A DNA stretch of 36,691 nucleotides from Candidatus Peregrinibacteria bacterium (GCA_014728955.1 WJKT01000087.1:1-36691); one strand, 5' to 3'. Positions 3,455 to 26,995 are shown, numbered from the stretch's first letter. Notes: a model not told the origin generated them from the sequence alone. Numbers and translations: made by a program.

Positions 3455-5866
3455 GTGGGGCGAAAAAACAAAAAACACTCATGGATATCCCGTACGATTT
3501 TTAACAAGCTCATGAATATTACAAGTGATGAGTGGCCTCGTATAGCCATTTCTTGGAGCTTGCAATTTTTATATAAGACGGGTTTTATTATTGGATGGAC
3601 TGTTTTGCTATCCATTTTTGCCACACGTTTCGGCATTCTTTCATTGCCGTTATTTTTTATTTTATATGCATTTTTAAATATTCTCGGTGCACTCGCCTAT
3701 TCGTTTGTACTCGATAAAATGAGAAAAGATACCATGATTATAGCGACTGCCTTAGGTGGAGCGCTTATCTTTTTATGTGCCGGGCTGCTTTCATATTATA
3801 GCGAAACATTGTTTATTTTCCTTGCAGTTGCAGGATTGGCTGTCGCCTTTACACAACTGTATATATTAAATTCCAGTTTTATAGAGGATCTATTCTCCCC
3901 TCTTGAAAGCGAACGAACATTCCCGCTTATTGAATCGGCTGAAACAATTGGTGGGATAGTCGGTGGTCTTCTCATTACCAGTTATGTAGGTAGTGTATCG
4001 ACCGCACATCTTTTAAACTTTTTGGTTATTATTCTGGTTATGATTGTGCCGCTTATGGTCTTTCATCGTCAATTATTGAAAAAACTTCCTTTTATTCACT
4101 TTAAAAAAAGAAAGCGTAATCCTGGTATCAATCTGCAGGAAATCAAAAATAATATTCGTCACGTACGACGGCTACCCTTTTTGAAAGTTCTTTTGGTTGT
4201 TGTTTTATGCCAATGGGTTTTTGCAAATTTACTTGAATTTCAGTTTATCGAAGCCTTATTCGGCCATCTCCCCGAGGGACTTCGCGCTGAGAAAGAACTA
4301 ACTCACGGGTTGGGGTCCCTCCAAGTACTGTTTCATTCGGTCGCTCTATTAATGCAACTGCTTGTTGCTAGCAGGATTATTTCTTCACTTGGCATCATTT
4401 CTTCACTGCTATTACATCCGGTAGTAACACTACTGAGTATCGGAACACTATTTTTCCGTTTTGGTATACATTCTGCTCTACTCACACGTATCAATTATGA
4501 AATGACATTTGTTATTTTTAAAAATGCCTACCATTCCTCATATTATGCCATTCAACCAAAAATTCGTGAACAAATACGAGAACTTCTGGAAGGGTTTGCA
4601 CGTCCCATGGGAACTATCTTCGGCATGGGAATGCTGCTGCTTTTTGAACGGATATTTAGTGGCACAACCTTCACGCAAAGCATAACTCTTCTCATGGCCA
4701 TAATTATGGCGATCATGCTTTTTGTTTTGGTTAAAAATGATAAACAATACACGCAGACTTCCGTTAAAACACTACTACGGTCTGATGAACTGTCACTACA
4801 ACTAAACGGCATAGAAATTTTAGGACAAAGGGGCCATAAAAACGCAACCGATATACTTACAAGAATGCTCAATAAAGACGATATTGATGATAAAGTTCGC
4901 ATAAAAATTCTTGAAACACTTGGGCATATCAAAGATCCTCAATCACTTATTGAAATAACCGATTCACTTAACCATAGCAATCCCGCTGTTCGTAAGGCGG
5001 CACTTATTGCCCTGGATGCTTTTGATACCTTCTCAAAGAAAGGTCAAAATAATCCTTTTTCAAATCACCGAACAAATGATTTATTGAAAAAGATGTTTTT
5101 GGACGAAGATGATTTTGTCATTAAATCATTAATTATTTCAATACTCACCAAACACAATAAAGGCGATATTGTCCCTTATTTGATTTCTCTTTTACAATCC
5201 AGTGATAAAAAACACCAAGTAGATGCAATTCAAGTATGTGGAAATTTTAATGATATATCGCTTGCACATTATCTTATGCCGTTTTTACATTCGAAAGAGC
5301 CAATTATCCGGTCACGCACTATTGTTGCACTTTGGCAATTTAAACGATATCGGATGCAGTTGTTGCAGGAGATAAAAAATATGCTTTTCAGTAAAGAAAA
5401 AGCTGAGCGATTAGAAGCGTATCATGTGCTTGGTGAAATTAAAGCGCTGCATGAAAAAAACAGGTTATTGGCTCTTCTTTCTTCCTCAGATGACGATGAG
5501 AGACTTGCAGCCGCCATTGCGCTGGCAAAAATGAATATATACGATGGAATACCCATTATTACCAATACCGTTGTCTACGACCCTTCATCACGCAAACGTT
5601 TGGTTCATTTAATTCAATGGGAAGTTTCAAAAAAAATGCGCACCTATATGCGTAAAGAAATAAATCAAAAAGTCTCTGTATATATCAATCATTTGTTATC
5701 TGAAAGTCACAAAAAAACACTAGAAGAGCTTGACACAACAACCTTATTGAAGCTTCGAAGTGCATATGAACTTGTCAATGAGCATGAAGAAGTGGAAAAT
5801 GTTAACAGAGTGCTGCAAAGCACATCGATTGAATATAATCGAGCTATACAATTTAATCCCGCTTAA
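3455..5866 (+). CDS. 12-TM MFS-fold transporter (N-terminus resembles the Npt1/Npt2 ATP:ADP-antiporter-like lineage) fused to a C-terminal HEAT-repeat domain
   Basis: 803 aa. I count 12 hydrophobic helices in a 6+6 layout split by a basic loop (HRQLLKKLPFIHFKKRKRNP). Residues ~450-800 contain repeated PBS-lyase-type HEAT units (ILGQRGHKNATDILTRML, VRIKILETLGHIKDP, NPAVRKAALIALDAF, IIRSRTIVALWQF, ERLAAAIALAKM). GTG start; the substrate is not determinable from sequence. Confidence 0.75.
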   Translation: MGRKNKKHSWISRTIFNKLMNITSDEWPRIAISWSLQFLYKTGFIIGWTVLLSIFATRFGILSLPLFFILYAFLNILGALAYSFVLDKMRKDTMIIATALGGALIFLCAGLLSYYSETLFIFLAVAGLAVAFTQLYILNSSFIEDLFSPLESERTFPLIESAETIGGIVGGLLITSYVGSVSTAHLLNFLVIILVMIVPLMVFHRQLLKKLPFIHFKKRKRNPGINLQEIKNNIRHVRRLPFLKVLLVVVLCQWVFANLLEFQFIEALFGHLPEGLRAEKELTHGLGSLQVLFHSVALLMQLLVASRIISSLGIISSLLLHPVVTLLSIGTLFFRFGIHSALLTRINYEMTFVIFKNAYHSSYYAIQPKIREQIRELLEGFARPMGTIFGMGMLLLFERIFSGTTFTQSITLLMAIIMAIMLFVLVKNDKQYTQTSVKTLLRSDELSLQLNGIEILGQRGHKNATDILTRMLNKDDIDDKVRIKILETLGHIKDPQSLIEITDSLNHSNPAVRKAALIALDAFDTFSKKGQNNPFSNHRTNDLLKKMFLDEDDFVIKSLIISILTKHNKGDIVPYLISLLQSSDKKHQVDAIQVCGNFNDISLAHYLMPFLHSKEPIIRSRTIVALWQFKRYRMQLLQEIKNMLFSKEKAERLEAYHVLGEIKALHEKNRLLALLSSSDDDERLAAAIALAKMNIYDGIPIITNTVVYDPSSRKRLVHLIQWEVSKKMRTYMRKEINQKVSVYINHLLSESHKKTLEELDTTTLLKLRSAYELVNEHEEVENVNRVLQSTSIEYNRAIQFNPA

Positions 5867-5867
5867 T

Positions 5868-6224
5868 ATGGCAACTATAGAAGTATTACCTCAAGAAACA
5901 ACAGATGACCCCTATCAAACTATCGTTATTAAAGGAGAGGTTGATCGAGATACCATAGATTCTCTACGTGAATCTATGGAAAAAGTGCTTTCAACGCTTC
6001 AGAAAAAAACACTGGTACTGAATTTGGAACATCTTGAATTTATTAATAGTGAAGGAATTGGCTACTTAACCGATATTTATAATCGATTGTCGGGAATGGA
6101 TAAAAAAGTGGTTATTGTGCATGCTTCAGATCGTATTATGGATATTTTTCAATTAGTTGGGCTTAACCAAATTATTACCTGCTATGCAAATGAAGAAGAA
6201 ATGAAAGCCAATCTCAGTCAATAA
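5868..6224 (+). CDS. STAS-domain protein (anti-sigma-factor antagonist, SpoIIAA/RsbV-like)
   Basis: The 118-aa form starts at ATG 5868, 1 nt after the upstream stop (5864-5866). It has the typical STAS pattern VIKGEVDRDT...LVLNLEHLEFINSEGIGYL...VVIVHASDRIMDIFQLVGL, with a Ser at the usual phospho-acceptor position (INSEGIG). I rejected the longer ORF-track start at 5760 because it overlaps the upstream gene by 107 nt. Confidence 0.85.
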   Translation: MATIEVLPQETTDDPYQTIVIKGEVDRDTIDSLRESMEKVLSTLQKKTLVLNLEHLEFINSEGIGYLTDIYNRLSGMDKKVVIVHASDRIMDIFQLVGLNQIITCYANEEEMKANLSQ

Positions 6225-6235
6225 ATTATTTTTCT

Positions 6236-7372
6236 ATGATTACCTGGATACGAAAAAGTATTACAAAAAGGATATCTCTGTGGCTTCTCCTGCTGGGAGG
6301 TGCGGGCGGTTATGCGGCTTATTACTATTGGGACACTGCATATAGTATTCCGCTTCCCTATTGTTTAGCGGGCGGCGCTGCCCTTTTACTGATTTTCATT
6401 ATTCTTCTTCATACGTATGTTAACAGGCCGCTTCGTATTCTCACTAAACAAATGAAATTATTGTTAACGGGGCGTTCATATAAAAAAATAACGACCGGAC
6501 GTATTGATGAAATTGGCATTATTGCTCAATTTTTTAATGAAATCACACAAAATCTCGAGAGTATTTCACAAAAACTTAAAGAGGGGCAAAGAATGTCATC
6601 TGAACTTGAAATAGCAAGTTCCATTCAGCGATCCATTCTGCCGGCACAAAGTCCCGATGTTCCTCACTTGGAGGTTGTGGCAAAATCACGACCTGCAGTG
6701 GAAGTTGGCGGAGACAGTTTTGATTTCATACAACGTGACAACGCTACATATTTTTATGTGGGTGACGTCACTGGTCACGGTGCTCCCGCAGCATTGGTTA
6801 TGATGATGGTTAACACGTTGCTTCATACGTACTCGGAGATGTATTCAAGTATTTACGATATTGTAGTTAACACTAATAAAATTTTAAAACCTCGCATTAA
6901 AGCGGCAATGTTTATGACTATGGTAATGCTGAAATGGGATCATACCAAGGAAACGTTATCGTATGTCGGTGCGGGGCACGAACATCTGCTCATTTACCGA
7001 AGCAAAACAGGAAAAGTCGAATCAATAGCTGCCGGAGGTGTTGCTCTGGGAATGGTTCCCGACAACAGCAAATTGGTTAAAGAAAAACAACTGAACCTTG
7101 AAGATGGAGACATGGTGGTTATTTATTCCGACGGTATTACCGAAGCAAAAAATGATAAAGGGGAAATGTTTGGCTTGGAAAATCTTGTTGCGTTAGTGCA
7201 AAAATACGCCACCCAATACGGCCCTGAAGGGGTTACCTACCATACGGCACTGGATTTTTCTCAATATGTGGGAGACGCACAGCAAGAAGATGATATCACC
7301 CTTATGGTTCTTCGTTATTCAAAACAAGGACAAGCACAAGAGAAAAAGACCTCAAAAAGCACTAATTGGTAG
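6236..7372 (+). CDS. Membrane-anchored HAMP-domain PP2C (SpoIIE/RsbU-family) serine phosphatase
   Basis: Two N-terminal TM helices with a very short loop are followed by a HAMP-like segment (RPLRILTKQMKLLLTG...IDEIGIIAQFFNEITQNL). PPM motifs then follow (GGDSFDF, GDVTGHGAPAAL, YSDGITEA, DDITLMVL). Confidence 0.9.
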   Translation: MITWIRKSITKRISLWLLLLGGAGGYAAYYYWDTAYSIPLPYCLAGGAALLLIFIILLHTYVNRPLRILTKQMKLLLTGRSYKKITTGRIDEIGIIAQFFNEITQNLESISQKLKEGQRMSSELEIASSIQRSILPAQSPDVPHLEVVAKSRPAVEVGGDSFDFIQRDNATYFYVGDVTGHGAPAALVMMMVNTLLHTYSEMYSSIYDIVVNTNKILKPRIKAAMFMTMVMLKWDHTKETLSYVGAGHEHLLIYRSKTGKVESIAAGGVALGMVPDNSKLVKEKQLNLEDGDMVVIYSDGITEAKNDKGEMFGLENLVALVQKYATQYGPEGVTYHTALDFSQYVGDAQQEDDITLMVLRYSKQGQAQEKKTSKSTNW

Positions 7373-7380
7373 TATCTTTT

Positions 7381-8403
7381 ATGAAAAAAAGCGACTTCTA
7401 TTTTGATCTGCCCGAAGAATTGATTGCGCAAAACCCCATCTCTCCGCGAGACAGGTCTCGATTGATGGTCTTGGACCGTACAGAAAAAACCATTCGTCAT
7501 CATCATTTTTTCGAACTCCCGTCTTTGCTTCCTGAAAATAGTGTGCTTGTTATTAATACAACTAAAGTTATCGCGGCACGACTGTATGTCGTTATCGATA
7601 ATAAGGAAGGTGAACTGTTGCTCCTTAAAAAGAAAAAACCTCATGTGTGGAAATGCATGGTTAAACCGGGGAAAAAATTTACGCGAAACACGTCATTTCG
7701 TGTTAAAGGGAGACAAACCTCTATTACCGGATGTGTAGAAAAAATACATCCTGACGGTACGCGCGATATCAATTTTGATATGAAAGGGAATTTCTCTCAG
7801 TGGCTTTCTGAAAACGGCTATGCACCATATCCTCCGTATATAAAAGATACCAGTGCGTCCTTTGAAGATTATCAAACAACCTATGCCAAGGATGAAGGGA
7901 GCGTTGCAGCTCCAACAGCAGGACTTCATTTTACCGATCGTGTTTTTGAAGCACTAAAAAAGCGAAACATCGATATTATTCCTATCACTCTCCATGTTGG
8001 TCGAGGAACATTTTTGCCAGTAAAGAGTGAATATATCCAAGATCACGTTATGCATAAAGAGTGGTATGAATTGTCACAAGAAAGTGCTGCTTTGCTTAAT
8101 AAAGCAAAGCGAGAAAACCGAAGTATTATTGCTGTTGGAACCACATCGGTTCGCACACTCGAATCAAATATTAATAAGAGCACATTTACGGCAAAAACAG
8201 AAGAAACCGATATATTCATCTATCCGGGCTACACCTATAAGGCGGTCGACGGCATTATCACCAATTTTCATTTACCCGAAAGCACATTGATTATGCTTAT
8301 CAGCGCATTTGCAGGGAGAGATTTTATATTAAATGCGTATCGCGATGCCGTTAATAAGAAATATCGCTTCTATAGCTTTGGCGATGCCATGCTTATTTAC
8401 TAA
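7381..8403 (+). CDS. queA: S-adenosylmethionine:tRNA ribosyltransferase-isomerase
   Basis: MKKSDFYFDLPEELIAQNPISPRDRSRLMVL, AAPTAGLHFT, ITLHVGRGTFLPV, VGTTSVRTLES and NFHLPESTLIMLISAF are canonical QueA motifs. I prefer ATG 7381 over 7366 because 7366 overlaps the upstream stop. Confidence 0.95.
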   Translation: MKKSDFYFDLPEELIAQNPISPRDRSRLMVLDRTEKTIRHHHFFELPSLLPENSVLVINTTKVIAARLYVVIDNKEGELLLLKKKKPHVWKCMVKPGKKFTRNTSFRVKGRQTSITGCVEKIHPDGTRDINFDMKGNFSQWLSENGYAPYPPYIKDTSASFEDYQTTYAKDEGSVAAPTAGLHFTDRVFEALKKRNIDIIPITLHVGRGTFLPVKSEYIQDHVMHKEWYELSQESAALLNKAKRENRSIIAVGTTSVRTLESNINKSTFTAKTEETDIFIYPGYTYKAVDGIITNFHLPESTLIMLISAFAGRDFILNAYRDAVNKKYRFYSFGDAMLIY

Positions 8404-10805
8404 AGCCATTCCGGAACATACTGCGGCTTTGTTATTTCATCTATACCAAGAACCAAGTCAATGTCATCAGCATTGAATTTTCCACGGTATAAATCTTTAA
8501 TCTCGCCGCCGGCTGCAACAAATTGTTTAATTTGGTTATAGCCTTTGTAATATAGTAAATCTTTTGTAAATCCTCCGTGTTCAGCAGTATCTTCCAAACC
8601 GCGTTTTACCTTAAGCGCATTACGCCAAGCACGTTCAGGTGGGATTTTATAATCCAACATTTTTTCAAACACTTCAACAAACGAGTGTTTCAACGCATAA
8701 TCAACGGCGAGTACCAATGAAATAGAAACATAAAGATTCGTATCCTCATCACCTTTCTGATTGACAATATTGTACATCGCTAAACCTTCCTGTGTTTCCA
8801 AATAATTGGCAAGTCCTCTGTTAAACAATTCATAGTATTGCCCCTTACCGTTTTCCGCGGTCAAAATATGTGTTTCTATCTCATGGACAATAAGATTTTC
8901 AATGCGTTTTTCCGTAAACAAAGCCCCTTTTCTAATAAACAAACGGTTGTTTTTCCCTGCAATGGCATCGGAAACCATATGTTCTTTAATTTTAACCTGC
9001 CAATTTTTCAATCCATACTTATGAAAGACTTCATCCATAATTTTTTTAGCTTCGGGAGCTTCAATGGTTCCTTTTTCCTGTTTGTATGTCACCGATGTTT
9101 TGGTAATCCATTCACGTGCACGATCAACCATTTTGGTATCGGGAACACCAAAAAGCTGCTTGGAAGCGTTTGTAAACTCTTCAGCAAACCCTCTAAATTC
9201 AAGCAGGTGAATTTTTCGTTCAATTTCTTGCTTTTTCTTAGCAAACAATTTCCCTAATGTTGATTGGTCTGTGTTTATAGCGCTCAAATCACGTTTCAAT
9301 GCATACAAATCAAATTTCAATTCCGGATATATAAACTGTGGATTCTTTTTGAAGTTTTTAAAAAAGGCGTTTTTTTCATCTTCCAGATTTACTGGGCGCA
9401 AGTGGTACAGAAGCTTTAATTTTTCATCGATTTTGATCAGATGCTGATCTATTTCATGATAATTGATCGTCTTTTTCTTATCTCCGGTAGTTGTCGGCGT
9501 CTCTTTTTTCTCAATATTTACGGTTTTTGCCGTTGGTAAAACCGTTTCTCTATCTTTCCGTGACGGATCAATAAAAAAGTTTGAAAGATCACGACTCCCC
9601 ACGATGAGTTCATAATCTTGGTCGGTTATCTTTTCGATATCAACAACCGTCTGAATTCGCTCTCCTTCAATAGATAATTTTAATTTGGTGGTTGATTTTT
9701 CATCATCATATCCCTGATCATCATCAAGTAACCCGGCTTCTATTGCAAATCGTTCATCAATAACAGAGCGTTCTCGTCCGGAATCCATTTTCGCTGTTAC
9801 TCGCCTTGTTCCATCTTTCAAATAAATATCGACAATTTCTTCAATACCGATAACATTTTTACCAGATACATGATGGATATTTTTTTCAACAACATTTCCG
9901 AACATATCTTTTGCTATCCGCACACCTTTTGTGGGATTGGTTACTTTAACACCTTCAATACGTTGTAAGCGTTTTTTTAACGGAGCAAGATTGGCAATTT
10001 GTACACCAAGCCCCGCCCGAGCATTAATTTCAAGGAGTACCGGACCGGATGTTTTATCAATACAAATATCGGCCGCCATATATCCCAAATTAGTTATCAA
10101 CTGGCATTGTGAGGCGATCATCAATATGTCCTCCCAATAAGGAATCTTTAATCCTTTTATGGGCCCGACACCGGGAATATCATCAATGATTTTGTTTTTA
10201 TATGAAATAAATGTTGCCTCCCCTTTTGCAATATCAATACCGACTCCCACAGCCCCCAGATGCAAGTTAGCTTTACCCAATGATTCTTTTGTCGGCAATC
10301 GAAGCATCGCCATGACCGGGATAAGGTTGTGAACAACAACACGAATATCGGGGAGTCCTCGATAGGCATAATTTGCTAATGTTTCATGAGAAATAATCAA
10401 TTGTTCAAAAAACGCGCTATCCCCTACATTCGAAATCGAATATCGCCCATCAATAGTATCCGAAATATGATCTATTAAATACTCTTTATCAAGTTTTCTT
10501 CCCGATGCCGTTATCCACGTATTTTCGCGTCTGTTTACAATAGGAATAATACCTTCGCCCCCAAAACCATGATTAGGCTTAATAATAAAAGCGTTTGGCA
10601 ATGAAGAAAAATCAAACTTTTCCAATTCTTCTTTTGTACGAATCGAACCATATAACTTGGGAACGGGAATTCCACGAGCCGACAGAAACTTTTTGGTTTT
10701 CAGTTTATCATCAGCCAGTTTGATAGTTTTTTTCTTATTATATGGCCGAATATATTCTAAATTTCGAGCATTTAAGCCAAGCAGGCCTTTTCCATTAAAA
10801 AACAT
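8400..10805 (-). CDS. Three-domain fusion: RimK-related ATP-grasp (alpha-L-glutamate-ligase-like) + retropepsin-like 'ATP-dependent zinc protease' domain + DUF1704/MATCAP-type HExxH-QEGLA metallocarboxypeptidase
   Basis: Residues 1-~295 (GLLGLNARNLEYIRPYNKKKTIKLADDKLKTKKFLSARGIPVP...IIKPNHGFGGEGI...LLEINARAGL) match the rimK-related ligase-like family. Residues ~315-415 (IGIEEIVDIYL...AKMDSGRERSVID...ELIVGSRDLSNFFIDPS) match the PF05618-type retropepsin-like fold, with D341-S342-G343 at 9777-9785. Residues ~445-801 carry HEIETH (641-646; 8868-8885) and ETQEGLAMY (QEGLA at 8778-8792), the hallmark of the 'QEGLA motif' DUF1704 family. Confidence 0.85.
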   Translation of the reverse strand: MFFNGKGLLGLNARNLEYIRPYNKKKTIKLADDKLKTKKFLSARGIPVPKLYGSIRTKEELEKFDFSSLPNAFIIKPNHGFGGEGIIPIVNRRENTWITASGRKLDKEYLIDHISDTIDGRYSISNVGDSAFFEQLIISHETLANYAYRGLPDIRVVVHNLIPVMAMLRLPTKESLGKANLHLGAVGVGIDIAKGEATFISYKNKIIDDIPGVGPIKGLKIPYWEDILMIASQCQLITNLGYMAADICIDKTSGPVLLEINARAGLGVQIANLAPLKKRLQRIEGVKVTNPTKGVRIAKDMFGNVVEKNIHHVSGKNVIGIEEIVDIYLKDGTRRVTAKMDSGRERSVIDERFAIEAGLLDDDQGYDDEKSTTKLKLSIEGERIQTVVDIEKITDQDYELIVGSRDLSNFFIDPSRKDRETVLPTAKTVNIEKKETPTTTGDKKKTINYHEIDQHLIKIDEKLKLLYHLRPVNLEDEKNAFFKNFKKNPQFIYPELKFDLYALKRDLSAINTDQSTLGKLFAKKKQEIERKIHLLEFRGFAEEFTNASKQLFGVPDTKMVDRAREWITKTSVTYKQEKGTIEAPEAKKIMDEVFHKYGLKNWQVKIKEHMVSDAIAGKNNRLFIRKGALFTEKRIENLIVHEIETHILTAENGKGQYYELFNRGLANYLETQEGLAMYNIVNQKGDEDTNLYVSISLVLAVDYALKHSFVEVFEKMLDYKIPPERAWRNALKVKRGLEDTAEHGGFTKDLLYYKGYNQIKQFVAAGGEIKDLYRGKFNADDIDLVLGIDEITKPQYVPEWL

Positions 10806-10814
10806 AGATAACGG

Positions 10815-12383
10815 TTATTCCTCCTCCACATGCCGAAGCACTTCACGAAAACGGACGTATTCAAGTAACCGTAGCCCCGTCCATCTACCGAGGAAAATAT
10901 TAATAAAGATGATTAAAATAATAACTTCGGGATATGCCAACATAAACCCTTGCAGGGCGGTAAAATGTATTTTGAAAAGATACAGGTCAATTGCCCCGCC
11001 AATAACAATATATGCGACAATTGCAACAAATACGGTTTGCAAACTTAAGATAATTGCTTTTCTGAAGCCTTTCCCTCCCTGAACATTAACAAATTTTTCC
11101 GTTAATGTGCTTAAAATCAACATAGGGAAAATCGATAACGAATAGAACTGTGCATCAAATAAATTAAATCGAATAGAAATAATCAGCATAAAGAGAATAG
11201 CAATAGCAACCGATGTCAGCACAATAGCCATTCGCGGCACGTAAAGCAGCCTGTAGCGTTTTAAGACAGAACGAGCACCCGTTCCCACCAAAAATACAAT
11301 AAGAAGCGTTAAGAGCCCGAATTTTAATCCCAGAATCCAGAAAGTGAGTGTAATAATTGTCGGAGTATAAACGCCAAAGGTGGTAAGCCCCACAACTTGC
11401 TTCATAATAGAAACCATAGTGGCGATAACAGGCAGCATAAGAATAAGAATAACGGTATTTGCCGGAATACCGCTGTCAATCAAGTAATTCACAAAATAAG
11501 ACATAAAATTCCATAATTGGAGTTGCCCTGTTTGCGCATTGGTTAATTGATAATCGTATCCGTCTTTTTCCATGCGTTGAATAAATTCCTCTGCTGTTGC
11601 ACTTTCTATAAAGGCATAAATGGCAGCTTCTTTTGCCGAGACAATGTTGTCAGGCTTAAGCAGTTCATATTGACGTTGCAATTGAGCGGTAGCCTGATCA
11701 TCATCGGAAACAACCAAAATGGTCTTGTCATCAAACGTTAAGGGGTCTTCCAAGTCAGCTTGATTTTGCTTAACACGTGAAAGTGCATTAAGGCCGGAAT
11801 GCCCTTCCGTCCACACAATAATTTCATCAATTTTCTTTAAATTTCCGATAGCTTCGCTCAACTTACGTTCAAGAATTTCTTCAGTAATAAATTCAGTCGC
11901 GCTATCGTAACTTTCATATACCAAAATATCGGTATCTCTATCTCTCGCGTAGTTTTTAAATCCTTCAACCCTATCTTTGATATCCGCTTTATCGGTAATA
12001 AAAACAATAATCTTTTTATATACAAAAATGTCACGTATGATGGTTTTTGTTTCCGTTCCGTCGTTTGCAGAAAGTGTAATTGTCTTTTGTCCCAACGTCG
12101 TATAAGTATGTACAACTTCTCTCCCCTCTTTTTTATTGCCGTCGCCAAAATCCCAATTATATGTGATAGATGCATCTTCATCGGGATGTGTTGTCTTTGC
12201 GGCATCAAAAATAATATTCTTATCAATCTGAATAGATTCCGGAGCCGTCATTTGCACCTCAAACGTTACTTCTTCCGGAGTCGACTCTTCGATAGCGGGC
12301 GTATCTTGTGCATATACCGCAAGCGGGAGTACATATAATAGGAGCGCACCGGCAGCTACACATTTTTTTATTGTTCTAAACAT
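10815..12383 (-). CDS. Secreted PKD-domain + alpha/beta-domain protein anchored by a C-terminal 7TM module (7TM_transglut-like), with C-terminus -VEEE
   Basis: It has a signal peptide (MFRTIKKCVAAGALLLYVLPLAVYAQ) and a PKD motif (ITYNWDFGDGNKKEGREVVHTYTTLGQKTITLSANDG). A ~150-aa alternating beta-alpha region follows, then 7 hydrophobic helices with family-typical LPVIATMVSIMKQVVGLTTFGVYTP and LGRWTGLRLLEYVRF. I prefer start 12383 (8-nt overlap with the ilvE stop) over 12416. Confidence 0.8.
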   Translation of the reverse strand: MFRTIKKCVAAGALLLYVLPLAVYAQDTPAIEESTPEEVTFEVQMTAPESIQIDKNIIFDAAKTTHPDEDASITYNWDFGDGNKKEGREVVHTYTTLGQKTITLSANDGTETKTIIRDIFVYKKIIVFITDKADIKDRVEGFKNYARDRDTDILVYESYDSATEFITEEILERKLSEAIGNLKKIDEIIVWTEGHSGLNALSRVKQNQADLEDPLTFDDKTILVVSDDDQATAQLQRQYELLKPDNIVSAKEAAIYAFIESATAEEFIQRMEKDGYDYQLTNAQTGQLQLWNFMSYFVNYLIDSGIPANTVILILMLPVIATMVSIMKQVVGLTTFGVYTPTIITLTFWILGLKFGLLTLLIVFLVGTGARSVLKRYRLLYVPRMAIVLTSVAIAILFMLIISIRFNLFDAQFYSLSIFPMLILSTLTEKFVNVQGGKGFRKAIILSLQTVFVAIVAYIVIGGAIDLYLFKIHFTALQGFMLAYPEVIILIIFINIFLGRWTGLRLLEYVRFREVLRHVEEE

Positions 12384-13281
12384 AGTAAAGCCAATTAGTA
12401 GACAGAATATCTTCACCGTTGATTATACCAGTAAATCGAGATTTTAAAGAATGAGTTACAGGACCAATATTTTCATTCCCTATACTTACCTTGTCAATCA
12501 CCCGAACCGGAGTAATTTCTGCAGCGGTTCCGGTAAGAAAAACTTCATCTGCTTGTTTCAGTTCATCGGGAGTAATTGTTTGTTCATGAACCGGTATATT
12601 CATTTCATCCGCAAGCTGCATAATTGTATCGCGCGTTATTCCTTTTAAAACAGTCTTCGTTGAAGGAGTAAACAATTCGCCGTTACGAACCATAAATACA
12701 TTTTCCCCGGGTCCTTCGGCAATATTCCCTTCTCCGTCAAGCAAAAGCGCTTCATCGTAACCGTGATGAGCACTTTCCAGTCCCGCTAAAATGGAATTTG
12801 TATAATGACCGCATATTTTCGCTTGTATATCGGTTGTTTGCGGATGGATCCTCCGATATGAAGAAATATGCAGCCGAATGGTTTCTTCTCCGAGATACGA
12901 TCCCCATGGCCAACAGGCAATGCATACATGAAGCGGTGCTCCGGTAGGAAGCAACCCCATTTTCCCATATCCGTAAAAAATGAGCGGCCTGATATAACCG
13001 TTTTTTAATGCATTTCTCTGTACGGTTAATGTTAACGCATCAATGAGTTCATCATGGGTATATGGCACTTCCATTTTCAGCACCGATGCCGAATACAGTA
13101 AGCGTTTTATATGCTCCCGTGGTCGAAAAAGAGCCACTCTCCCTTTAGCGGTTTGATAACATCGGATACCTTCAAACACACCTCCTCCGTAGTGAAGACT
13201 GTGTGAAAGTACATGAATTTTTGCCTTTTCCCACGGGATTGATTCCCCGTCCATCCAAATATATTTTGTTGGCTCAATCAT
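12376..13281 (-). CDS. ilvE: Branched-chain amino-acid aminotransferase
   Basis: IWMDGESIPWEKAKIHVLSHSLHYGGGVFEGIRCY, RPREHIKRL, GYIRPLIFYG and EGPGENVF...LFTP...LKGITRD are class IV aminotransferase / IlvE motifs. I prefer the start at M19 of the ORF (13281). Confidence 0.9.
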   Translation of the reverse strand: MIEPTKYIWMDGESIPWEKAKIHVLSHSLHYGGGVFEGIRCYQTAKGRVALFRPREHIKRLLYSASVLKMEVPYTHDELIDALTLTVQRNALKNGYIRPLIFYGYGKMGLLPTGAPLHVCIACWPWGSYLGEETIRLHISSYRRIHPQTTDIQAKICGHYTNSILAGLESAHHGYDEALLLDGEGNIAEGPGENVFMVRNGELFTPSTKTVLKGITRDTIMQLADEMNIPVHEQTITPDELKQADEVFLTGTAAEITPVRVIDKVSIGNENIGPVTHSLKSRFTGIINGEDILSTNWLYYV

Positions 13282-13352
13282 AGTAATTATTACAAAGTCA
13301 ACCCGGATCGTATCAAATGTACCTGGAAAACTCAATAAAGCATGGTGCTTCT

Positions 13353-23295: not shown

Positions 23296-24483
23296 TCATT
23301 TCTTTATCAATGTCGATATCGAACGCTGTATGTCTCCATAGTTACCGCTTTTCGGTAACAAAATATATTGTCCGTTTATGGCTCGTGAAGCGTAAAGTAC
23401 ATTGTCCGTACTAATAACGTTCCCGCTCTCAATTGCATAATTCTGATATCTGCTTAAATAATGTAAAGCTTCAAATACGTCTATGTCAGTCTGCACATAC
23501 TGTTTAACCACACCGTACAAATCGATTGCTTTATCAATATCATCCAGTATATTTAATAATTTTATTTTCACCCGCAGCGCCTGAACAATCTGTTGCTGTC
23601 TTTTACTTCGATCAAAATCGCTTGTGGTTTTTCTGCTCCGGGCATACATGAGCGCCTCTTCTCCCGTCATATGATGCGATCCTTCTTCGACAACATATTC
23701 ACGGTAGCCATTATTTGCCGTTGGGAAATAAGGATCCCGAATTGTTTCGCGAACATATATATCAATACCATCGAGGATATCAATCGTTTGTTTAAATGCT
23801 TCCATATTAAAAACAACATAATGATCGAAAGTTAATCCGGTCACCATGCCAAGATCATGTTTTATTTTTTCTATCCCGTAAGCGGCATAAACGCTATTTA
23901 TTTTCCTCCCGTTAACATACAAATCACGCGGGATACTTACCAGACTTATCGTTTTGTTTTCAGGATTGATAGCGGCAATAATAATAGTATCGGTTAACAA
24001 ATCATGCTCACCAAGAATTAAAACCGTCACTATTTCGTCCGGCTGGTTTGGGATTGAAGCTTCTTGTACAAGCGCGTTGTTTTTTTGTTGCAGCTCATGA
24101 AGCGATTGCTCTTTTTCAGACAAAGTATCCATTAATGAACGTTTTACCTGCGCAAACTGATTGCGCAACGCTTCTTGCTTTTCTTGATCATTTGCAATAG
24201 TTCCCAGAAAAGCTTCTTCAAATCCCGCCAAGGTTTCATGAACAATTCCTCTGTTTTCCACTATATGTTGATAGAGATAATAATTTTCTTCCTTTAGCTG
24301 ACCGATTTCTTCAGCCATAGAATGCAATTGTATATCTTTGTCCCTCACCTGATCGTGGATTGTTCGCATACCCATCCCCAAGCCAACAACGCCGATAACT
24401 AAAGCGACCATTAATCCAGCAACCAAGATGCGAATATTCCTAATGGTGTCCTTATATTGTTCGTGATTTTCAGGCATTTGCAT
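23296..24483 (-). CDS. LytR-CpsA-Psr (LCP) family cell-envelope glycopolymer transferase with an N-terminal TM anchor and coiled coil
   Basis: TM helix ILVAGLMVALVIGVVGLGMG and a coiled-coil region. LCP core: VLILGEHDLLTDTIIIAAINPENKTISLVSIPRDLYV, FDHYVVFNMEAFKQTIDILDGIDIYV, EEALMYARSRKTTSDFDRSKRQQQIV. I prefer start 24483 (or 24477), which overlaps the upstream stop by 8-14 nt. The ORF-track start is 24543. Confidence 0.85.
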   Translation of the reverse strand: MQMPENHEQYKDTIRNIRILVAGLMVALVIGVVGLGMGMRTIHDQVRDKDIQLHSMAEEIGQLKEENYYLYQHIVENRGIVHETLAGFEEAFLGTIANDQEKQEALRNQFAQVKRSLMDTLSEKEQSLHELQQKNNALVQEASIPNQPDEIVTVLILGEHDLLTDTIIIAAINPENKTISLVSIPRDLYVNGRKINSVYAAYGIEKIKHDLGMVTGLTFDHYVVFNMEAFKQTIDILDGIDIYVRETIRDPYFPTANNGYREYVVEEGSHHMTGEEALMYARSRKTTSDFDRSKRQQQIVQALRVKIKLLNILDDIDKAIDLYGVVKQYVQTDIDVFEALHYLSRYQNYAIESGNVISTDNVLYASRAINGQYILLPKSGNYGDIQRSISTLIKK

Positions 24484-26995
24484 TAAGGTCAATACCAATA
24501 CGGGCCGATATCTCTTGATCAACAAATTCACGTTTTCGGCCATACTTCATGCTTGAATATTGTTTTACAATTTCAGCAACTTTTTTATTTTGTTTTGATG
24601 TGTCCCAGATAGTTTCAAGTGAAAACGGTCTTGAGGTGGTGTTATTAATATTCAATTTTATATATGCTTTATAATTGGCAATACCAAGAACATCGGCTTC
24701 CGTAAGTACCGGTGCATACTCTTTTGCCATGTACTGAGCATCGTCCGCACCCACTTTAAAGGACATCATCGTTCCCACGTTACCAAAAACCGCATCTCTT
24801 ATGGACGTATCCTGTTTCTTTTCGAGCTGCTTAATATATTGATGCGCCATAATTAAGGCAAGACGATATTTACGCGCCTCGGATAGAATCGAACAGAAAC
24901 TGTCCGTAGCAAAATTCTGGAACTCATCCACATATAGATAAAAATCTTTACGTTGATCTTCCGGCATATCCGCCCTACTCATTGCCGCCATCTGAATCCG
25001 AGCCACAACAACCAGTCCCAGCAGCTGCGTATTAAGATCTCCTATTTTACCTTTGGAAAGATTAATTAATAAAATTTTACCCGTATCCATCACTTCCCTA
25101 AAATTAAACGCTGATTTTGTTTGTCCGATAGTATTACGCATAATGGAGTTGGTAATAAACGGCCCAAACTTTGATGAAAAATACGGAATCATTTCCTGAC
25201 GTTCACGTTCACCCGTATGCGCATATTCATGTTCCCAGAATGATCGAACAACCGGATTACGCACTTTGGCAACTTTATATTTCATGAAATCGTTGTCGAC
25301 AAAAATACGAGGCACATCGATAAGCGTTGCGCCTTCTTCTTTGTCTTCCATTAAGGTTAAACATGCATTTCTAAAATAGTGCTGAATCCGCGGTCCAAAA
25401 ATCTCATCACCAAACAGTTTAATAAAAATTTCCGTTGCCTGGCTGGATGCAAGATCCTGCTCTTCCGCCGTTTTTGCTTCAAGGATATTCAATCCCATTG
25501 GCCGTTCCTGATCTGCCGGATTAAAGACAATAACATCTTTTGCTCGCTCTTTCGGTACATAGGTCAACACATCTTCAACCAAATCACCATGAGGATCAAC
25601 AACACACACCCCTTCTCCATTCCAAATATCCTGACGCGCCATAAAACTGATGAATGCCGATTTACCTGCACCCGACTTTCCTATGATGTATTGATGTCTT
25701 GTCCGATCATCCTTCATAATGCGTACTTTTCGTTTTACTCCACGATAAACATTGTCACCGAGATAAACACCTTCTTCGGGAAGATCAACCGGTGCCGGCA
25801 CCACTTTATATTTTAACCATCGAATGGTTGGCGTGTAATTATATCTGCTGCTCGGGAAATGAAACATTCCCGCCAATTCTTCGGGAACAAGCAGTGAGCT
25901 TTTTTCCCAAATAAATGGAATAAGTCTAAATGCCTGCAATCTATGCTTAAATGTATGCATCAACAGCTTATCGTTGATTGAATCTATCATAATCATACGC
26001 CGTGTCTGGAACCAGTTTGCCGCAGCGCTTTTAAAGAGATTTAACGCCAAGATCATATTGTTTGCAATATCATAGGCTCGTTTTTCCGTAGGAGAGGTTG
26101 CAACAATACGAACAATCGTATCGAACCCAACCTGGTTTGCCTTTTCACCGATTTGCTTGGCAACCTCCTCTTTAGTTTGCAGCATACGAACGTACTGACT
26201 TCCTTCGGGGGCACCCGTATTAATATCTTTTTTTACTTTATCATAGCCAAAGATTAATGCTTTGAAAGCGGTAAAAATCCATCCCAAAACAGGGATTTTC
26301 GCAAGAGCTCCTTTATCGCCTTTCCCCAAGAACAATTTTGTACCCACCCGTTCAGCTTTTTTTCTCCATCTATCCGATCGCGGACTTACTACAAACTGAA
26401 AGACTGCTCTATCATGATCCTCAAGTTTTGATAAAACATTCGTTAAATCGTTGAGCGGATCATTCTCTATTTTCTTATAGGTCTTGATAGGATATGCATG
26501 GCCACGAGCCAGATACGCATAGTGTGAACGAATTTTATGTCCTTGTGGTAATACTTCATAGGGTTTTGTAAATTGAATATCGGCATTCGGATAGTACGCG
26601 GTAATTTGCTTCTCAATAAGATCTTTAAAGTGCGGATACGTTACGACATAAAAATCAACCTGCTTATTCATAGCAACCATTTCAAAAGAAACTACGTCCA
26701 GATTGAAAATCAGATTACGAATTCGGTATCCGAGCGAAAGTTCACGTATTTCATGAATATTACGATAAAACTGATCCATGACGCCGATTTTTTCACGAAA
26801 ATCTTTTTCGACCTGCTTTTCTTTATCTTTTTGAGTATCGGCACGTGGCATGGTAACCCGCATATAGATAAGCTTTTTTGTTCTTCGAAGTGCTACTAAA
26901 TAGCGAAATAATGCAAGCACATACTTAAAACCAAACCAGCCAATAATAATGGCTATTGCCCACCATACAACGTTCTTTAACAATTCCTCCCACAT
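24470..26995 (-). CDS. TraD/VirD4/HerA-like P-loop NTPase (type IV coupling-protein-like) with an N-terminal membrane anchor
   Basis: 841 aa with an N-terminal TM helix (VVWWAIAIIIGWFGFKYVLALF). Walker A is IIGKSGAGKSAF followed by VVDPHGDL. Walker B/TraG-D_C-like is FYLYVDEFQNFATDSF...ARKYRLALIMAHQY. No other T4SS component is present in the window. Confidence 0.85.
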   Translation of the reverse strand: MWEELLKNVVWWAIAIIIGWFGFKYVLALFRYLVALRRTKKLIYMRVTMPRADTQKDKEKQVEKDFREKIGVMDQFYRNIHEIRELSLGYRIRNLIFNLDVVSFEMVAMNKQVDFYVVTYPHFKDLIEKQITAYYPNADIQFTKPYEVLPQGHKIRSHYAYLARGHAYPIKTYKKIENDPLNDLTNVLSKLEDHDRAVFQFVVSPRSDRWRKKAERVGTKLFLGKGDKGALAKIPVLGWIFTAFKALIFGYDKVKKDINTGAPEGSQYVRMLQTKEEVAKQIGEKANQVGFDTIVRIVATSPTEKRAYDIANNMILALNLFKSAAANWFQTRRMIMIDSINDKLLMHTFKHRLQAFRLIPFIWEKSSLLVPEELAGMFHFPSSRYNYTPTIRWLKYKVVPAPVDLPEEGVYLGDNVYRGVKRKVRIMKDDRTRHQYIIGKSGAGKSAFISFMARQDIWNGEGVCVVDPHGDLVEDVLTYVPKERAKDVIVFNPADQERPMGLNILEAKTAEEQDLASSQATEIFIKLFGDEIFGPRIQHYFRNACLTLMEDKEEGATLIDVPRIFVDNDFMKYKVAKVRNPVVRSFWEHEYAHTGERERQEMIPYFSSKFGPFITNSIMRNTIGQTKSAFNFREVMDTGKILLINLSKGKIGDLNTQLLGLVVVARIQMAAMSRADMPEDQRKDFYLYVDEFQNFATDSFCSILSEARKYRLALIMAHQYIKQLEKKQDTSIRDAVFGNVGTMMSFKVGADDAQYMAKEYAPVLTEADVLGIANYKAYIKLNINNTTSRPFSLETIWDTSKQNKKVAEIVKQYSSMKYGRKREFVDQEISARIGIDLNANA

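Follow-up and report, generated by a model that had tools for sequence, protein, structure and literature searches.

We report a Peregrinibacterial gene pair in which a three-domain enzyme, combining an ATP-grasp ligase, a retropepsin-fold domain, and a MATCAP-type metallocarboxypeptidase in one polypeptide, is preceded by a gene for a seven-transmembrane (7TM) protein with a glutamate-ended tail. The window, i.e., the whole stretch of Candidatus Peregrinibacteria DNA that was analyzed, is 36,691 nt long. We tentatively propose, with a probability of about 0.45, that this pair acts in the cytoplasm as a writer and eraser of C-terminal glutamates; the foremost candidate for its substrate is the tail of the 7TM partner. 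Such a reading suggests that a bacterial protein tail is extended and trimmed in a cycle, much as in tubulin glutamylation.

Domain architecture and spread of the fused enzyme

The enzyme gene occupies positions 8400..10805 on the minus strand, starts with ATG, and encodes 801 aa; a hydropathy scan (maximum 1.31) showed neither a signal peptide nor a TM segment. A preliminary description made from the sequence alone had recognized the three domains, and the strings quoted in it are all present: GLNARNLEYIRPYNKKK...GIPVP at residues 10–49, AKMDSGRERSVID at 338–350, LIVGSRDLSNFFIDPS at 400–415, HEIETH at 641–646, and ETQEGLAMY at 670–678. The fusion is real and not an assembly or frameshift artifact, since there are more than 120 full-length homologs of ~800 aa (56–92% identity), and 149 stretches from species-representative genomes contain a match. 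The homologs belong almost exclusively to Peregrinibacteria. In the literature searched, no paper connected DUF1704/MATCAP with ATP-grasp.

The N-terminal ATP-grasp domain (residues ~5–290; 9936..10793, minus strand), related to RloC and RimK, matches PF14397 (ATPgrasp_ST) at residues 14–284 with E 1e-68 (232 bits, gathering score 31.4) and is 41.8% identical to a Legionella RloC-like protein. With TIGR02291 (rimK_rel_E_lig) it scores 279.2 bits, under the NCBIfam equivalog cut-off of 314.2; judged by profile score, it is a relative rather than an equivalog of the proteobacterial TIGR02291 protein. Scores with the RimK family models are also below their cut-offs (PF08443, 15.6 bits vs. 21; TIGR00768, 41 vs. 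143). The closest structural neighbors identified by Foldseek are ArgX/LysX and RimK. These ATP-grasps modify proteins at a C-terminal Glu: LysW in the case of ArgX/LysX and S6 in that of RimK. The nucleotide and Mg2+ ligands of the ATP-grasp fold are present: K76, G80–G85, D246, E259-I-N261, and R263 are invariant in both the 54 and the 71 orthologs compared, as are E134 and R155 in the 71 species-level orthologs.

The C-terminal domain (residues ~453–801; 8403..9449, minus strand) is assigned to the MATCAP/TMCP-type (DUF1704, QEGLA) metallocarboxypeptidases. PF08014 (MATCAP) matches residues 481–801 with E 1.6e-58 (198.9 bits, gathering score 27), human MATCAP (PDB 7z5g) aligns to the domain directly (phmmer E 7e-9), and MATCAP is also its top Foldseek match (E 5e-13, TM 0.64 on target). 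The score with TIGR02421 (QEGLA), 193.7 bits, is under the NCBIfam equivalog cut-off of 338.65. The zinc motif, previously given as HExxH, is in fact HExxxH: HEIETH (H641-E642-x-x-x-H646; 8868..8885, minus strand) aligns to HEIGTH of human MATCAP, and the QEGLA motif (8778..8792, minus strand), containing E673 as the predicted third zinc ligand, aligns to EEGLA. In MATCAP/TMCP enzymes, HExxxH is completed by a downstream “EEG” Glu as the third metal ligand (PMC10499314), and the window protein has Q672-E673-G674 in this place. Residues H641, E642, H646, Q672, and E673 are 100% invariant in the 71 species-level orthologs. Hence, neither catalytic site is degenerate, and the complete invariance of ligase and MATCAP residues indicates that both predicted activities are under selection. 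The earlier assignments of the two terminal regions were thus confirmed by profiles as well as by structural comparison.

The middle domain (residues ~315–415; 9561..9863, minus strand) follows a helix at residues ~291–314. The best PDB matches of its AF2 model (pLDDT 78) are RloA structures 9g58/9g59 (E 3.9e-6, TM 0.59), followed by DUF785, Ddi1, and retroviral proteases. In two-domain relatives, its profile matches RimB-like domains with the canonical DTGA (E 1e-17 to 1e-28), which Pfam flags as PF05618; it also matches a stand-alone 157-aa RimB-like protein. Direct matches to PF05618 were absent at E ≤ 10 from both the excised domain and 49 family members; Asp_protease_2/gag-asp_proteas matches are sub-threshold (E 0.06–0.08), PF13650 is matched by 29 of the 49 members (best 4.8e-5), and the hhalign alignment with Legionella RloA is weak (E 0.039) and confined to the surroundings of the DTG loop. 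The retropepsin-like nature suggested in the preliminary description is thus retained as a predicted fold closest to RloA and as homology through intermediates, and not as a direct family HMM match.

The window protein has the canonical D341-S342-G343 at the retropepsin “catalytic triad” position (9777..9785, minus strand). The phrase “two peptidase-like domains” nevertheless overstates the middle domain, as D[TS]G is found in 18 of 62 fusions vs. 39 of 41 relatives that lack a MATCAP fusion. Across 71 orthologs, residue 341 is D in 35, N in 32, S in three, and A in one, and residue 342 is P in 29; N-P-L/V/N replacements are common in fused orthologs. Such degeneracy in most fused orthologs suggests that proteolysis by the middle domain is not the conserved function. 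The domain probably descends from an active RimB-type poly-Glu endopeptidase and would, in the fused lineage, most likely serve as a dimerization and/or acidic-tail-binding module; in the window protein, with D-S-G retained, it may still cleave.

The 7TM partner and its glutamate tail

The partner gene (10815..12416, minus strand; translation probably begins at the ATG at 12383) lies upstream of the enzyme gene on the same strand, with a 9-nt gap to the enzyme ATG. Its product comprises a signal peptide, a PKD domain (PF18911 PKD_4, E 6e-15), an ecto-region of ~190 aa without a family match, and a 7TM_transglut (RloB-like) membrane domain (PF14402, E 2.6e-28). The seven-TM region, delimited by PF14402 and hydropathy (residues ~320–509; 10890..11459, minus strand), is 29% identical to that of Legionella RloB (E 1e-22). 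PF14400, the inactive transglutaminase domain present in Legionella RloB, is absent from the partner. Hydropathy and positive-inside analysis predict an N-out, C-in topology, placing the tail in the cytoplasm, the same compartment as the signal-less enzyme.

The C-terminal tail (GRWTGLRLLEYVRFREVLRHVEEE; 10818..10889, minus strand), a candidate for modification by both the ligase and the carboxypeptidase, terminates in ...RFREVLRHVEEE, with three Glu codons, GAG GAG GAA, at 10818..10826 (minus strand). Its conservation, 0.77–0.78, equals that of the best TM segments. An E{2,} ending (2–4 Glu) was observed in 69 of 70 partners of the fused enzyme, compared with a background of 3.7% in other ORFs; the number of terminal Glu is two in 23 species, three in 27, and four in three. 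These endings bear out the relevance of a peptide ending in -RHVEEE, which had been suggested as an assay substrate.

The 7TM/enzyme gene pair is kept down to ~34% identity. Among the related loci for which upstream sequence is available, the only exceptions are six divergent fused genes, where no 7TM partner lies within 4 kb. The PF14397 ligase gene immediately follows the 7TM gene in the window, in the related loci, and in Legionella rloBC. MATCAP accompanies a Glu-tailed partner in 62 of 63 loci and other tails in 10 of 42; these counts are uncorrected for phylogeny, and the clade with Glu-tails and fusions may essentially be a single lineage. Basic-tailed partners co-occur with MATCAP at 10 loci, one of them a fusion (L115), and at one fused locus (L075) the partner ends in -KTLD. 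Given these non-acidic and other non-Glu tails and the six partner-less fused genes, the enzyme can function without a Glu-tailed neighbor; hence, the partner tail is a strong candidate rather than a demonstrated substrate.

A ligase gene with a RimB-like domain and a MATCAP gene are adjacent but separate at several loci (L093, L107–L110, L125, L141, and L151), and in Alphaproteobacteria unfused MATCAP/QEGLA genes adjoin those of GshB/RimK-type ATP-grasps. Thus, the coupling of ligase and carboxypeptidase is recurrent.

Proposed mechanism and alternatives

In the proposed mechanism, the RloC/RimK-type ATP-grasp domain would attach L-glutamate, at the expense of ATP, to a peptide whose C-terminus is already Glu, and the MATCAP/TMCP-type zinc carboxypeptidase would trim residues from the same C-terminus, so that a single polypeptide would determine how long the acidic tail is. 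In this clade, the substrate would most likely be the cytoplasmic tail of the upstream 7TM partner, and the writer/eraser system would be attached to a membrane protein. The sequence and structure comparisons establish the domain architecture, the conservation of catalytic sites and tail, the gene pairing, the shared compartment, and the co-occurrence counts; from these we infer that glutamate is what is added, which protein is the substrate, how the cycle runs and is regulated, and an effect of tail length on the 7TM protein. The preliminary description likened the enzyme to the tubulin tyrosination cycle; (poly)glutamylation/deglutamylation of tubulin is a better analogy, since MATCAP/TMCP enzymes also take off C-terminal Glu and shorten polyglutamate chains (PMC10499314).

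A possible but less likely alternative is that the ligase makes free or lipid/peptide-primed poly-α-glutamate or a similar acidic peptide, that the 7TM protein exports or presents this product, and that the retropepsin-like and MATCAP domains control its length or recycle it. The Glu-tail would then prime synthesis, mimic the product, or serve in docking or autoregulation rather than being the end substrate. RimK is capable of free poly-α-Glu synthesis in vitro. One of the structural matches, PDB 5zct, is entitled “poly-alpha-L-glutamate peptides synthetase RimK.” Furthermore, most 7TM partners outside the fused clade are basic-tailed, some of them still with MATCAP, and six fused genes have no nearby partner. 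In Pseudomonas, RloA is periplasmic and cleaves runs of at least eight Glu, and its loss is suppressed by deletion of rloB or rloC, implying an RloBC-dependent product that reaches the periplasm (PMC12239564). However, a free polymer leaves unexplained both the nearly universal Glu ending of the partners of the fused enzyme and a tail conservation equal to that of TM helices, and the cytoplasmic location of both degradative domains, tethered to the synthase, would be odd for an export product.

It is improbable that the enzyme modifies another cytoplasmic protein, e.g., ribosomal protein S6, with the 7TM protein only anchoring or regulating it and the Glu-tail acting as a pseudosubstrate. While the RimK-RimB precedent (PMC12239564), the leuA/leuD-like neighbors of partner-less fused genes, and the additional RimK-type ligase genes in some clusters (L092, L093, and L096) would suit such a role, among ~150 loci a 7TM gene stands immediately before the PF14397 ligase gene at each one with available sequence, the six partner-less fused genes excepted, and no other conserved Glu-terminated protein was found in the neighborhood of the loci. 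In the window, one other ORF of at least 80 aa ends in -EE; it is unrelated and 202 aa long.

Finally, the terminal Glu codons might have no protein-chemistry meaning and instead couple translation to the enzyme gene through a Shine-Dalgarno site (in the window, GGAGGAGGA), as the window arrangement (GAG GAG GAA TAA 9 nt before ATG, with GGAGG ~14 nt upstream) and the short gaps at most loci (−4 to +20 nt) could suggest, but this is highly implausible because the tail codons (GAA 129, GAG 28; 18% GAG in 61 Glu-tailed loci) follow the usage of the gene body (22% GAG), most tails contain GAAGAATAA without GGAGG, and the tail is kept both at gaps of 42–1693 nt and on distant partners whose next genes differ. 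By codon usage and persistence across long gaps, selection on the tail acts at the protein rather than the RNA level.

Relation to known systems

The closest known system is the rloABC operon of Pseudomonas, Vibrio, and Legionella, encoding the retropepsin-like poly-Glu peptidase RloA, the inactive-transglutaminase-7TM protein RloB, and the ATP-grasp RloC; RloA and RimB both cleave poly-Glu (Lormand et al., 2025; PMC12239564). The separate proteobacterial ATP-grasp, retropepsin, and 7TM genes mentioned in the preliminary description correspond to this operon, and an unfused example is located on a Legionella plasmid. The two systems share the ligase family PF14397 (42% identity to the Legionella RloC-like protein), the 7TM family PF14402 with the juxtamembrane motif G..G.RLLE.VRF, and a 7TM gene immediately before the ligase gene. 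They also have in common a retropepsin-fold domain, that of the window enzyme being structurally closest to RloA. In contrast to secreted RloA, the protease domain of the window is cytoplasmic, ligase-fused, and degenerate at the active site in most orthologs; the partner ectodomain consists of PKD and a region without family match instead of Transglut_i_TM; the enzyme gains a MATCAP carboxypeptidase; the partner tail is Glu-ended, unlike those of Legionella and Aeromonas RloB; and the host belongs to the candidate phyla, whereas RloB is reported to be 96% proteobacterial. A periplasmic protease, as in Proteobacteria, is easier to reconcile with export of the product than with a tail in the cytoplasm.

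Stand-alone proteobacterial “flavohemoglobin expression-modulating QEGLA motif proteins” (TIGR02421) contain the PF08014 domain (25–28% identity), and in Alphaproteobacteria an ATP-grasp (GshB/RimK-type) gene adjoins. They differ in length (~620–660 aa) and in having neither a ligase fusion nor a 7TM partner, and the window protein scores under the cut-off of their family. In a Shinella protein, Pfam gives the MATCAP domain only, the N-terminal ~265 aa being without a match, whereas a Vibrio example has an N-terminal N-formylglutamate-amidohydrolase-like domain (PF05013).

In the RimK-RimB-S6 system, the RimK ATP-grasp, structurally near to the ligase, extends a genome-encoded -EE C-terminus with Glu, and a cytoplasmic retropepsin-like peptidase removes the added residues. 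The window ligase is outside the RimK family, its candidate substrate is a membrane-protein tail rather than S6, and the eraser is predicted to be mainly the metallocarboxypeptidase.

With the eukaryotic tubulin tail code, comprising TTL/TTLL, MATCAP/TMCP1-2 (KIAA0895L/KIAA0895), and CCP, the window enzyme shares a true MATCAP homolog with the HExxxH + E(EG) site and the pairing of an ATP-grasp writer with a carboxypeptidase eraser on an acidic C-terminal tail. On the other hand, there is no tubulin, the ligase belongs to another ATP-grasp branch than TTL/TTLL, new residues would be joined by alpha linkage to the C-terminus of the main chain and not to branch-point side chains, and writer and eraser reside on one polypeptide. 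With both a ligase and a carboxypeptidase in the same chain, the enzyme would need regulation to avoid a futile cycle.

A three-domain enzyme conserved across a lineage

The 801-aa ORF at 8400..10805 (minus strand) contains all the strings quoted in the preliminary description, and both of the end domains proposed there are borne out. PF14397 ATPgrasp_ST covers residues 14–284 (E 1e-68) and PF08014 MATCAP residues 481–801 (E 1.6e-58). The NCBIfam models TIGR02291 "alpha-L-glutamate ligase-like" (279 bits) and TIGR02421 "QEGLA motif protein" (194 bits) match strongly, yet below their equivalog cut-offs. Human MATCAP (KIAA0895L, PDB 7z5g) can be aligned directly to the C-terminal domain (E 7e-9), pairing HEIETH with HEIGTH and TQEGLA with TEEGLA; the zinc motif is thus HExxxH, and the HExxH of the preliminary description has to be corrected. 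When an AlphaFold2 model of the full-length enzyme (pLDDT 82) was compared with known structures, as had been proposed, MATCAP ranked first among PDB entries (E 5e-13), ahead of ArgX/LysX and RimK, ATP-grasp ligases whose targets are protein C-termini ending in Glu. No hydrophobic segment is present in the enzyme. Across 71 species-level orthologues, K76, E134, R155, D246, E259, N261, and R263 of the ATP-grasp domain and H641, E642, H646, Q672, and E673 of the MATCAP domain are invariant; the Asp position of the middle, retropepsin-like domain is variable.

A homologue search of 5.8 billion proteins yielded more than 120 full-length proteins of ~800 aa with 56–92% identity to the enzyme, and 149 matching stretches were found in species-representative genomes. 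Almost all of the 80 stretches retrieved belong to Candidatus Peregrinibacteria/Peribacteria, the nearest match among them being from a Peribacteria MAG (92% identity). The fusion is therefore lineage-wide, and the full-length homologues together with conserved synteny rule out an assembly or frameshift artefact. ORFs missing at some loci are explained by contig truncations rather than by genetic code 25. Six loci (L070, L076–L080) carry a divergent subgroup of the three-domain enzyme (~45% identity; fused gene at ~4000–6350) in which the retropepsin site reads "D-P-T" and the MATCAP motif takes the human form, "TEEGLA"; these genes follow leuA/leuD-like genes, and no 7TM partner was found within 4 kb of any of them.

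Annotation pipelines label the homologues [quoted passage not shown], "DUF1704 domain-containing protein", or "alpha-L-glutamate ligase-like protein/TIGR02421 family". Since both end domains are already named by automated annotations, an earlier in-silico mention of the fusion is possible, e.g., in a 2009 amidoligase survey; our literature search found no paper joining DUF1704/MATCAP to ATP-grasp ligases, and a search on 7TM_transglut found nothing. To our knowledge, no function has yet been assigned to MATCAP/QEGLA proteins of bacteria.

The middle domain

The retropepsin-like character ascribed to the middle of the protein (residues ~291–420) was upheld for fold and ancestry, without a direct family-HMM match: aspartyl-protease models match this region only below threshold, PF05618 does not match it by direct profile comparison, and a profile search of PDB sequences gave nothing relevant. 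PF13650 Asp_protease_2 matches the domain in 29 of 49 family members (best E 4.8e-5). The fold is settled by structure and by intermediates. The top PDB matches of an AlphaFold2 model of the domain (pLDDT 78) are Pseudomonas RloA and RloA2 (9g58, 9g59; E ~4e-6, TM ~0.59), with Lpg0085/DUF785, Ddi1, and retroviral proteases ranking lower. The domain profile recovers two-domain ATP-grasp relatives through their C-terminal halves (E 1e-20 to 1e-28), as well as a stand-alone RimB-like protein of 157 aa (E 1e-17), all of which have the canonical DTGA in a region labeled PF05618 by Pfam precomputed matches. A comparison with one Legionella RloA by hhalign was marginal (E 0.039).

The position of the "catalytic" Asp is occupied in the 71 orthologues by D (35), N (32), S (3), or A (1), and is followed by Pro in 29, while R383, R405, and D406 are essentially invariant. 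The canonical D[TS]G occurs in 31/33 relatives without MATCAP and in 8/8 with a separate MATCAP gene, compared to just 18/62 MATCAP fusions, which suggests that the conserved role of this domain in the fused lineage is probably not proteolysis; the enzyme in the window retains D-S-G. Retropepsins are obligate dimers, and dimerisation is hence one candidate role, acidic-tail binding being another, possibly concurrent one. Active-site decay that specifically follows MATCAP fusion would make a clean case of eraser module replacement.

The 7TM partner, its tail, and the distribution of MATCAP

Nine nucleotides upstream of the enzyme gene, on the same strand, lies the gene of a 533-aa 7TM protein (10815..12416, minus strand), which consists of a signal peptide, a PKD domain (E 6e-15), a region of ~190 aa, and PF14402 7TM_transglut (E 2.6e-28). 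Across its 7TM part it shares 29% identity (E 1e-22) with the RloB of a Legionella plasmid, encoded there in an unfused rloABC-type operon; this RloB has the PF14400 inactive-transglutaminase ectodomain, whereas the partner lacks it. The ~190 extracytoplasmic residues at ~126–319 (11460–12041, minus strand), situated between the PKD and 7TM regions where classical RloB has the inactive transglutaminase, had no Pfam or NCBIfam match and are moderately conserved (column identity 0.4–0.6). The listed GTG start overlaps the end of an upstream class-IV aminotransferase ORF (12376..13335) by 41 nt (12376–12416), and the ATG at 12383 (MFRTIKK...), ahead of the signal peptide, is the more likely start.

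From hydropathy and charge distribution, the partner has its N-terminus outside and its C-terminus inside, so that the C-terminal tail, GRWTGLRLLEYVRFREVLRHVEEE, is cytoplasmic and shares its compartment with the enzyme. The partner ends in at least two Glu at 69 of 83 related loci; among the others, six are truncated upstream, one (L075) has a partner ending in -KTLD, and six are the partner-less loci L070 and L076–L080. Two, three, and four terminal Glu are encoded in 23, 27, and 3 species, respectively. In conservation, the tail equals the partner's best TM segments. Of the other ORFs at these loci, only 3.7% end in EE.

As the window's tail codons, GAG GAG GAA, generate GGAGG upstream of the enzyme ATG, the tail was examined as a possible by-product of a ribosome-binding site. 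This explanation is essentially excluded: GAA accounts for 82% of the tail Glu codons and GAG for 18%, compared to 22% GAG in the gene body, the majority of tails read GAAGAATAA, and the tail is kept at loci with intergenic gaps of 42–1693 nt.

The tail is not general to RloB. When the 7TM region was used as query in an exhaustive HMMER search, 1445 representatives were returned (E<=1e-3); among the best 150 of these, tails with two or more acidic residues at the end number 68 and tails with a single terminal Glu 13, the others often being basic, and RloB tails of Legionella and Aeromonas are non-acidic. Genomic contexts were surveyed for sampled 7TM representatives and by a metagenome scan seeded with basic-tailed 7TMs. 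Wherever sequence was available, the 7TM gene is directly followed by a gene for a PF14397 ligase, whose RimB-like domain is either fused or adjacent. MATCAP is present in 62/63 informative Glu-tailed loci (61 fused) and in 10/42 other-tailed loci (8 with MATCAP as its own gene downstream, 2 fused), being absent in 32 (Fisher p = 5e-17, uncorrected for phylogeny). Thus, the Glu-tail predicts MATCAP, while MATCAP, an accessory module, does not require the Glu-tail. A strict one-to-one correspondence is rejected by these 10 loci and by L075 and L115, which are fused in the absence of a Glu-tail. The latter locus encodes an 820-aa ligase + RimB-like + MATCAP fusion (L115:1645–4107) next to a basic-tailed 7TM partner (...ELRKKHRA), and stems either from a separate fusion or from an early branch older than the Glu-tail.

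Split forms, e.g., locus L093 with the gene order 7TM, ligase+RimB-like, MATCAP, RimK, provide Rosetta-stone evidence that the ligase and the carboxypeptidase work together. In some PKD-7TM/ligase clusters of uncultured bacteria, one to three extra RimK/GshB-type ATP-grasp genes are located downstream (L092, 3553–6800; L093, 9028–9975; L096, 1934–2911), which suggests multi-ligase systems.

Independently, in α-Proteobacteria, QEGLA/MATCAP genes are flanked by genes for N-formylglutamate amidohydrolase (FGase) and a GshB/RimK-type ATP-grasp protein, apparently another Glu-related ligase/hydrolase association. The order is FGase–QEGLA–GshB-like ATP-grasp in Shinella and Aminobacter; on S. meliloti pSymB, annotated FGase–QEGLA genes are followed by an unannotated gap of ~1.2 kb. 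Proteobacterial QEGLA/MATCAP proteins are ~620–660 aa long (L085, L100, L101, L102), and that of the Vibrio sp. HDW18 plasmid (L085:4113–6104) has an N-terminal FGase-like domain (PF05013).

Proposed function and genomic neighborhood

By homology, the system is a variant of rloABC. It scores below equivalog level, lacks the secreted RloA and the transglutaminase ectodomain of rloABC proper, and adds the MATCAP domain and the Glu-tailed partner. In Pseudomonas, Rlo-type ATP-grasp/7TM systems, whose physiological substrate and product are an explicit open question, are important for osmotic tolerance, for the formation of biofilms, and for sensitivity to antibiotics (PMC12239564). Poly-Glu is cleaved by RimB and RloA, and loss of RloA proteases is suppressed by deletion of rloB or rloC (PMC12239564). 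MATCAP/TMCP enzymes are HExxxH + EEG carboxypeptidases that strip C-terminal Tyr and then Glu, and shorten polyglutamate chains (PMC10499314).

Combined with the present results, these facts make a cytoplasmic writer/eraser the best-supported model, with the partner tail as prime candidate substrate in this clade (probability about 0.45). The ATP-grasp domain would extend a Glu-terminated C-terminus, in the Glu-tail clade primarily the partner's own tail, and the MATCAP domain would trim the extension, a mode of action similar to RimK/RimB/S6 and to tubulin glutamylation/deglutamylation. We infer Glu as the added residue, the substrate, the regulation needed to avoid a futile cycle, and how the 7TM protein is affected. 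More tentatively, a single polypeptide may both write and erase a glutamate tail at the cytoplasmic C-terminus of its 7TM partner; through the length of this tail, a membrane sensor or transporter would be switched reversibly and with ATP coupling.

The main rival, a less likely one, is that a free or exported poly-Glu-type product is made and length-controlled, with the tail as a primer, mimic, or docking site; compared with the tail model, it is the better fit for periplasmic proteobacterial RloA and for systems with basic tails. Another protein substrate, e.g., S6, is improbable.

If the more tentative reading, a tail-length switch on the partner, is true, the system would parallel, in a prokaryote, the glutamylation code of tubulin and would supply the first physiological substrate for any Rlo-type ATP-grasp or bacterial MATCAP homologue; a MATCAP eraser would have displaced the ancestral retropepsin eraser, which survives as a binding/dimerisation module. 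With S6 and SdeA as the only bacterial polyglutamylation targets known so far (PMC12239564), the tail, if it is the substrate, would add a third and the first on a membrane protein, and the writer-plus-MATCAP-eraser logic of the tubulin code would have existed in bacteria. The open substrate question becomes a one-peptide, one-enzyme experiment with cheap material: a 12–17-residue tail peptide ending in -HVEEE (LLEYVRFREVLRHVEEE), soluble enzyme, and two catalytic knock-outs.

Convergent to the enzyme gene, both in the window (6236–8403, plus strand) and at the related loci L001–L003, are a SpoIIE-family phosphatase gene and queA, a neighborhood conserved at 59% identity, with a STAS-domain gene beyond it in L001–L003. 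This may be simple synteny or a hint of partner-switching regulation. The window also encodes an 803-aa protein with an MFS transporter domain and C-terminal HEAT repeats (3455–5866, plus strand); in L001–L003, too, a syntenic HEAT-repeat gene lies close to the enzyme/partner pair. Finally, the window encodes an 841-aa VirD4/TraG-type type IV secretion coupling protein (24470–26995, minus strand; TrwB_AAD_bind, T4SS-DNA_transf), here in a small-genome candidate-phyla bacterium.
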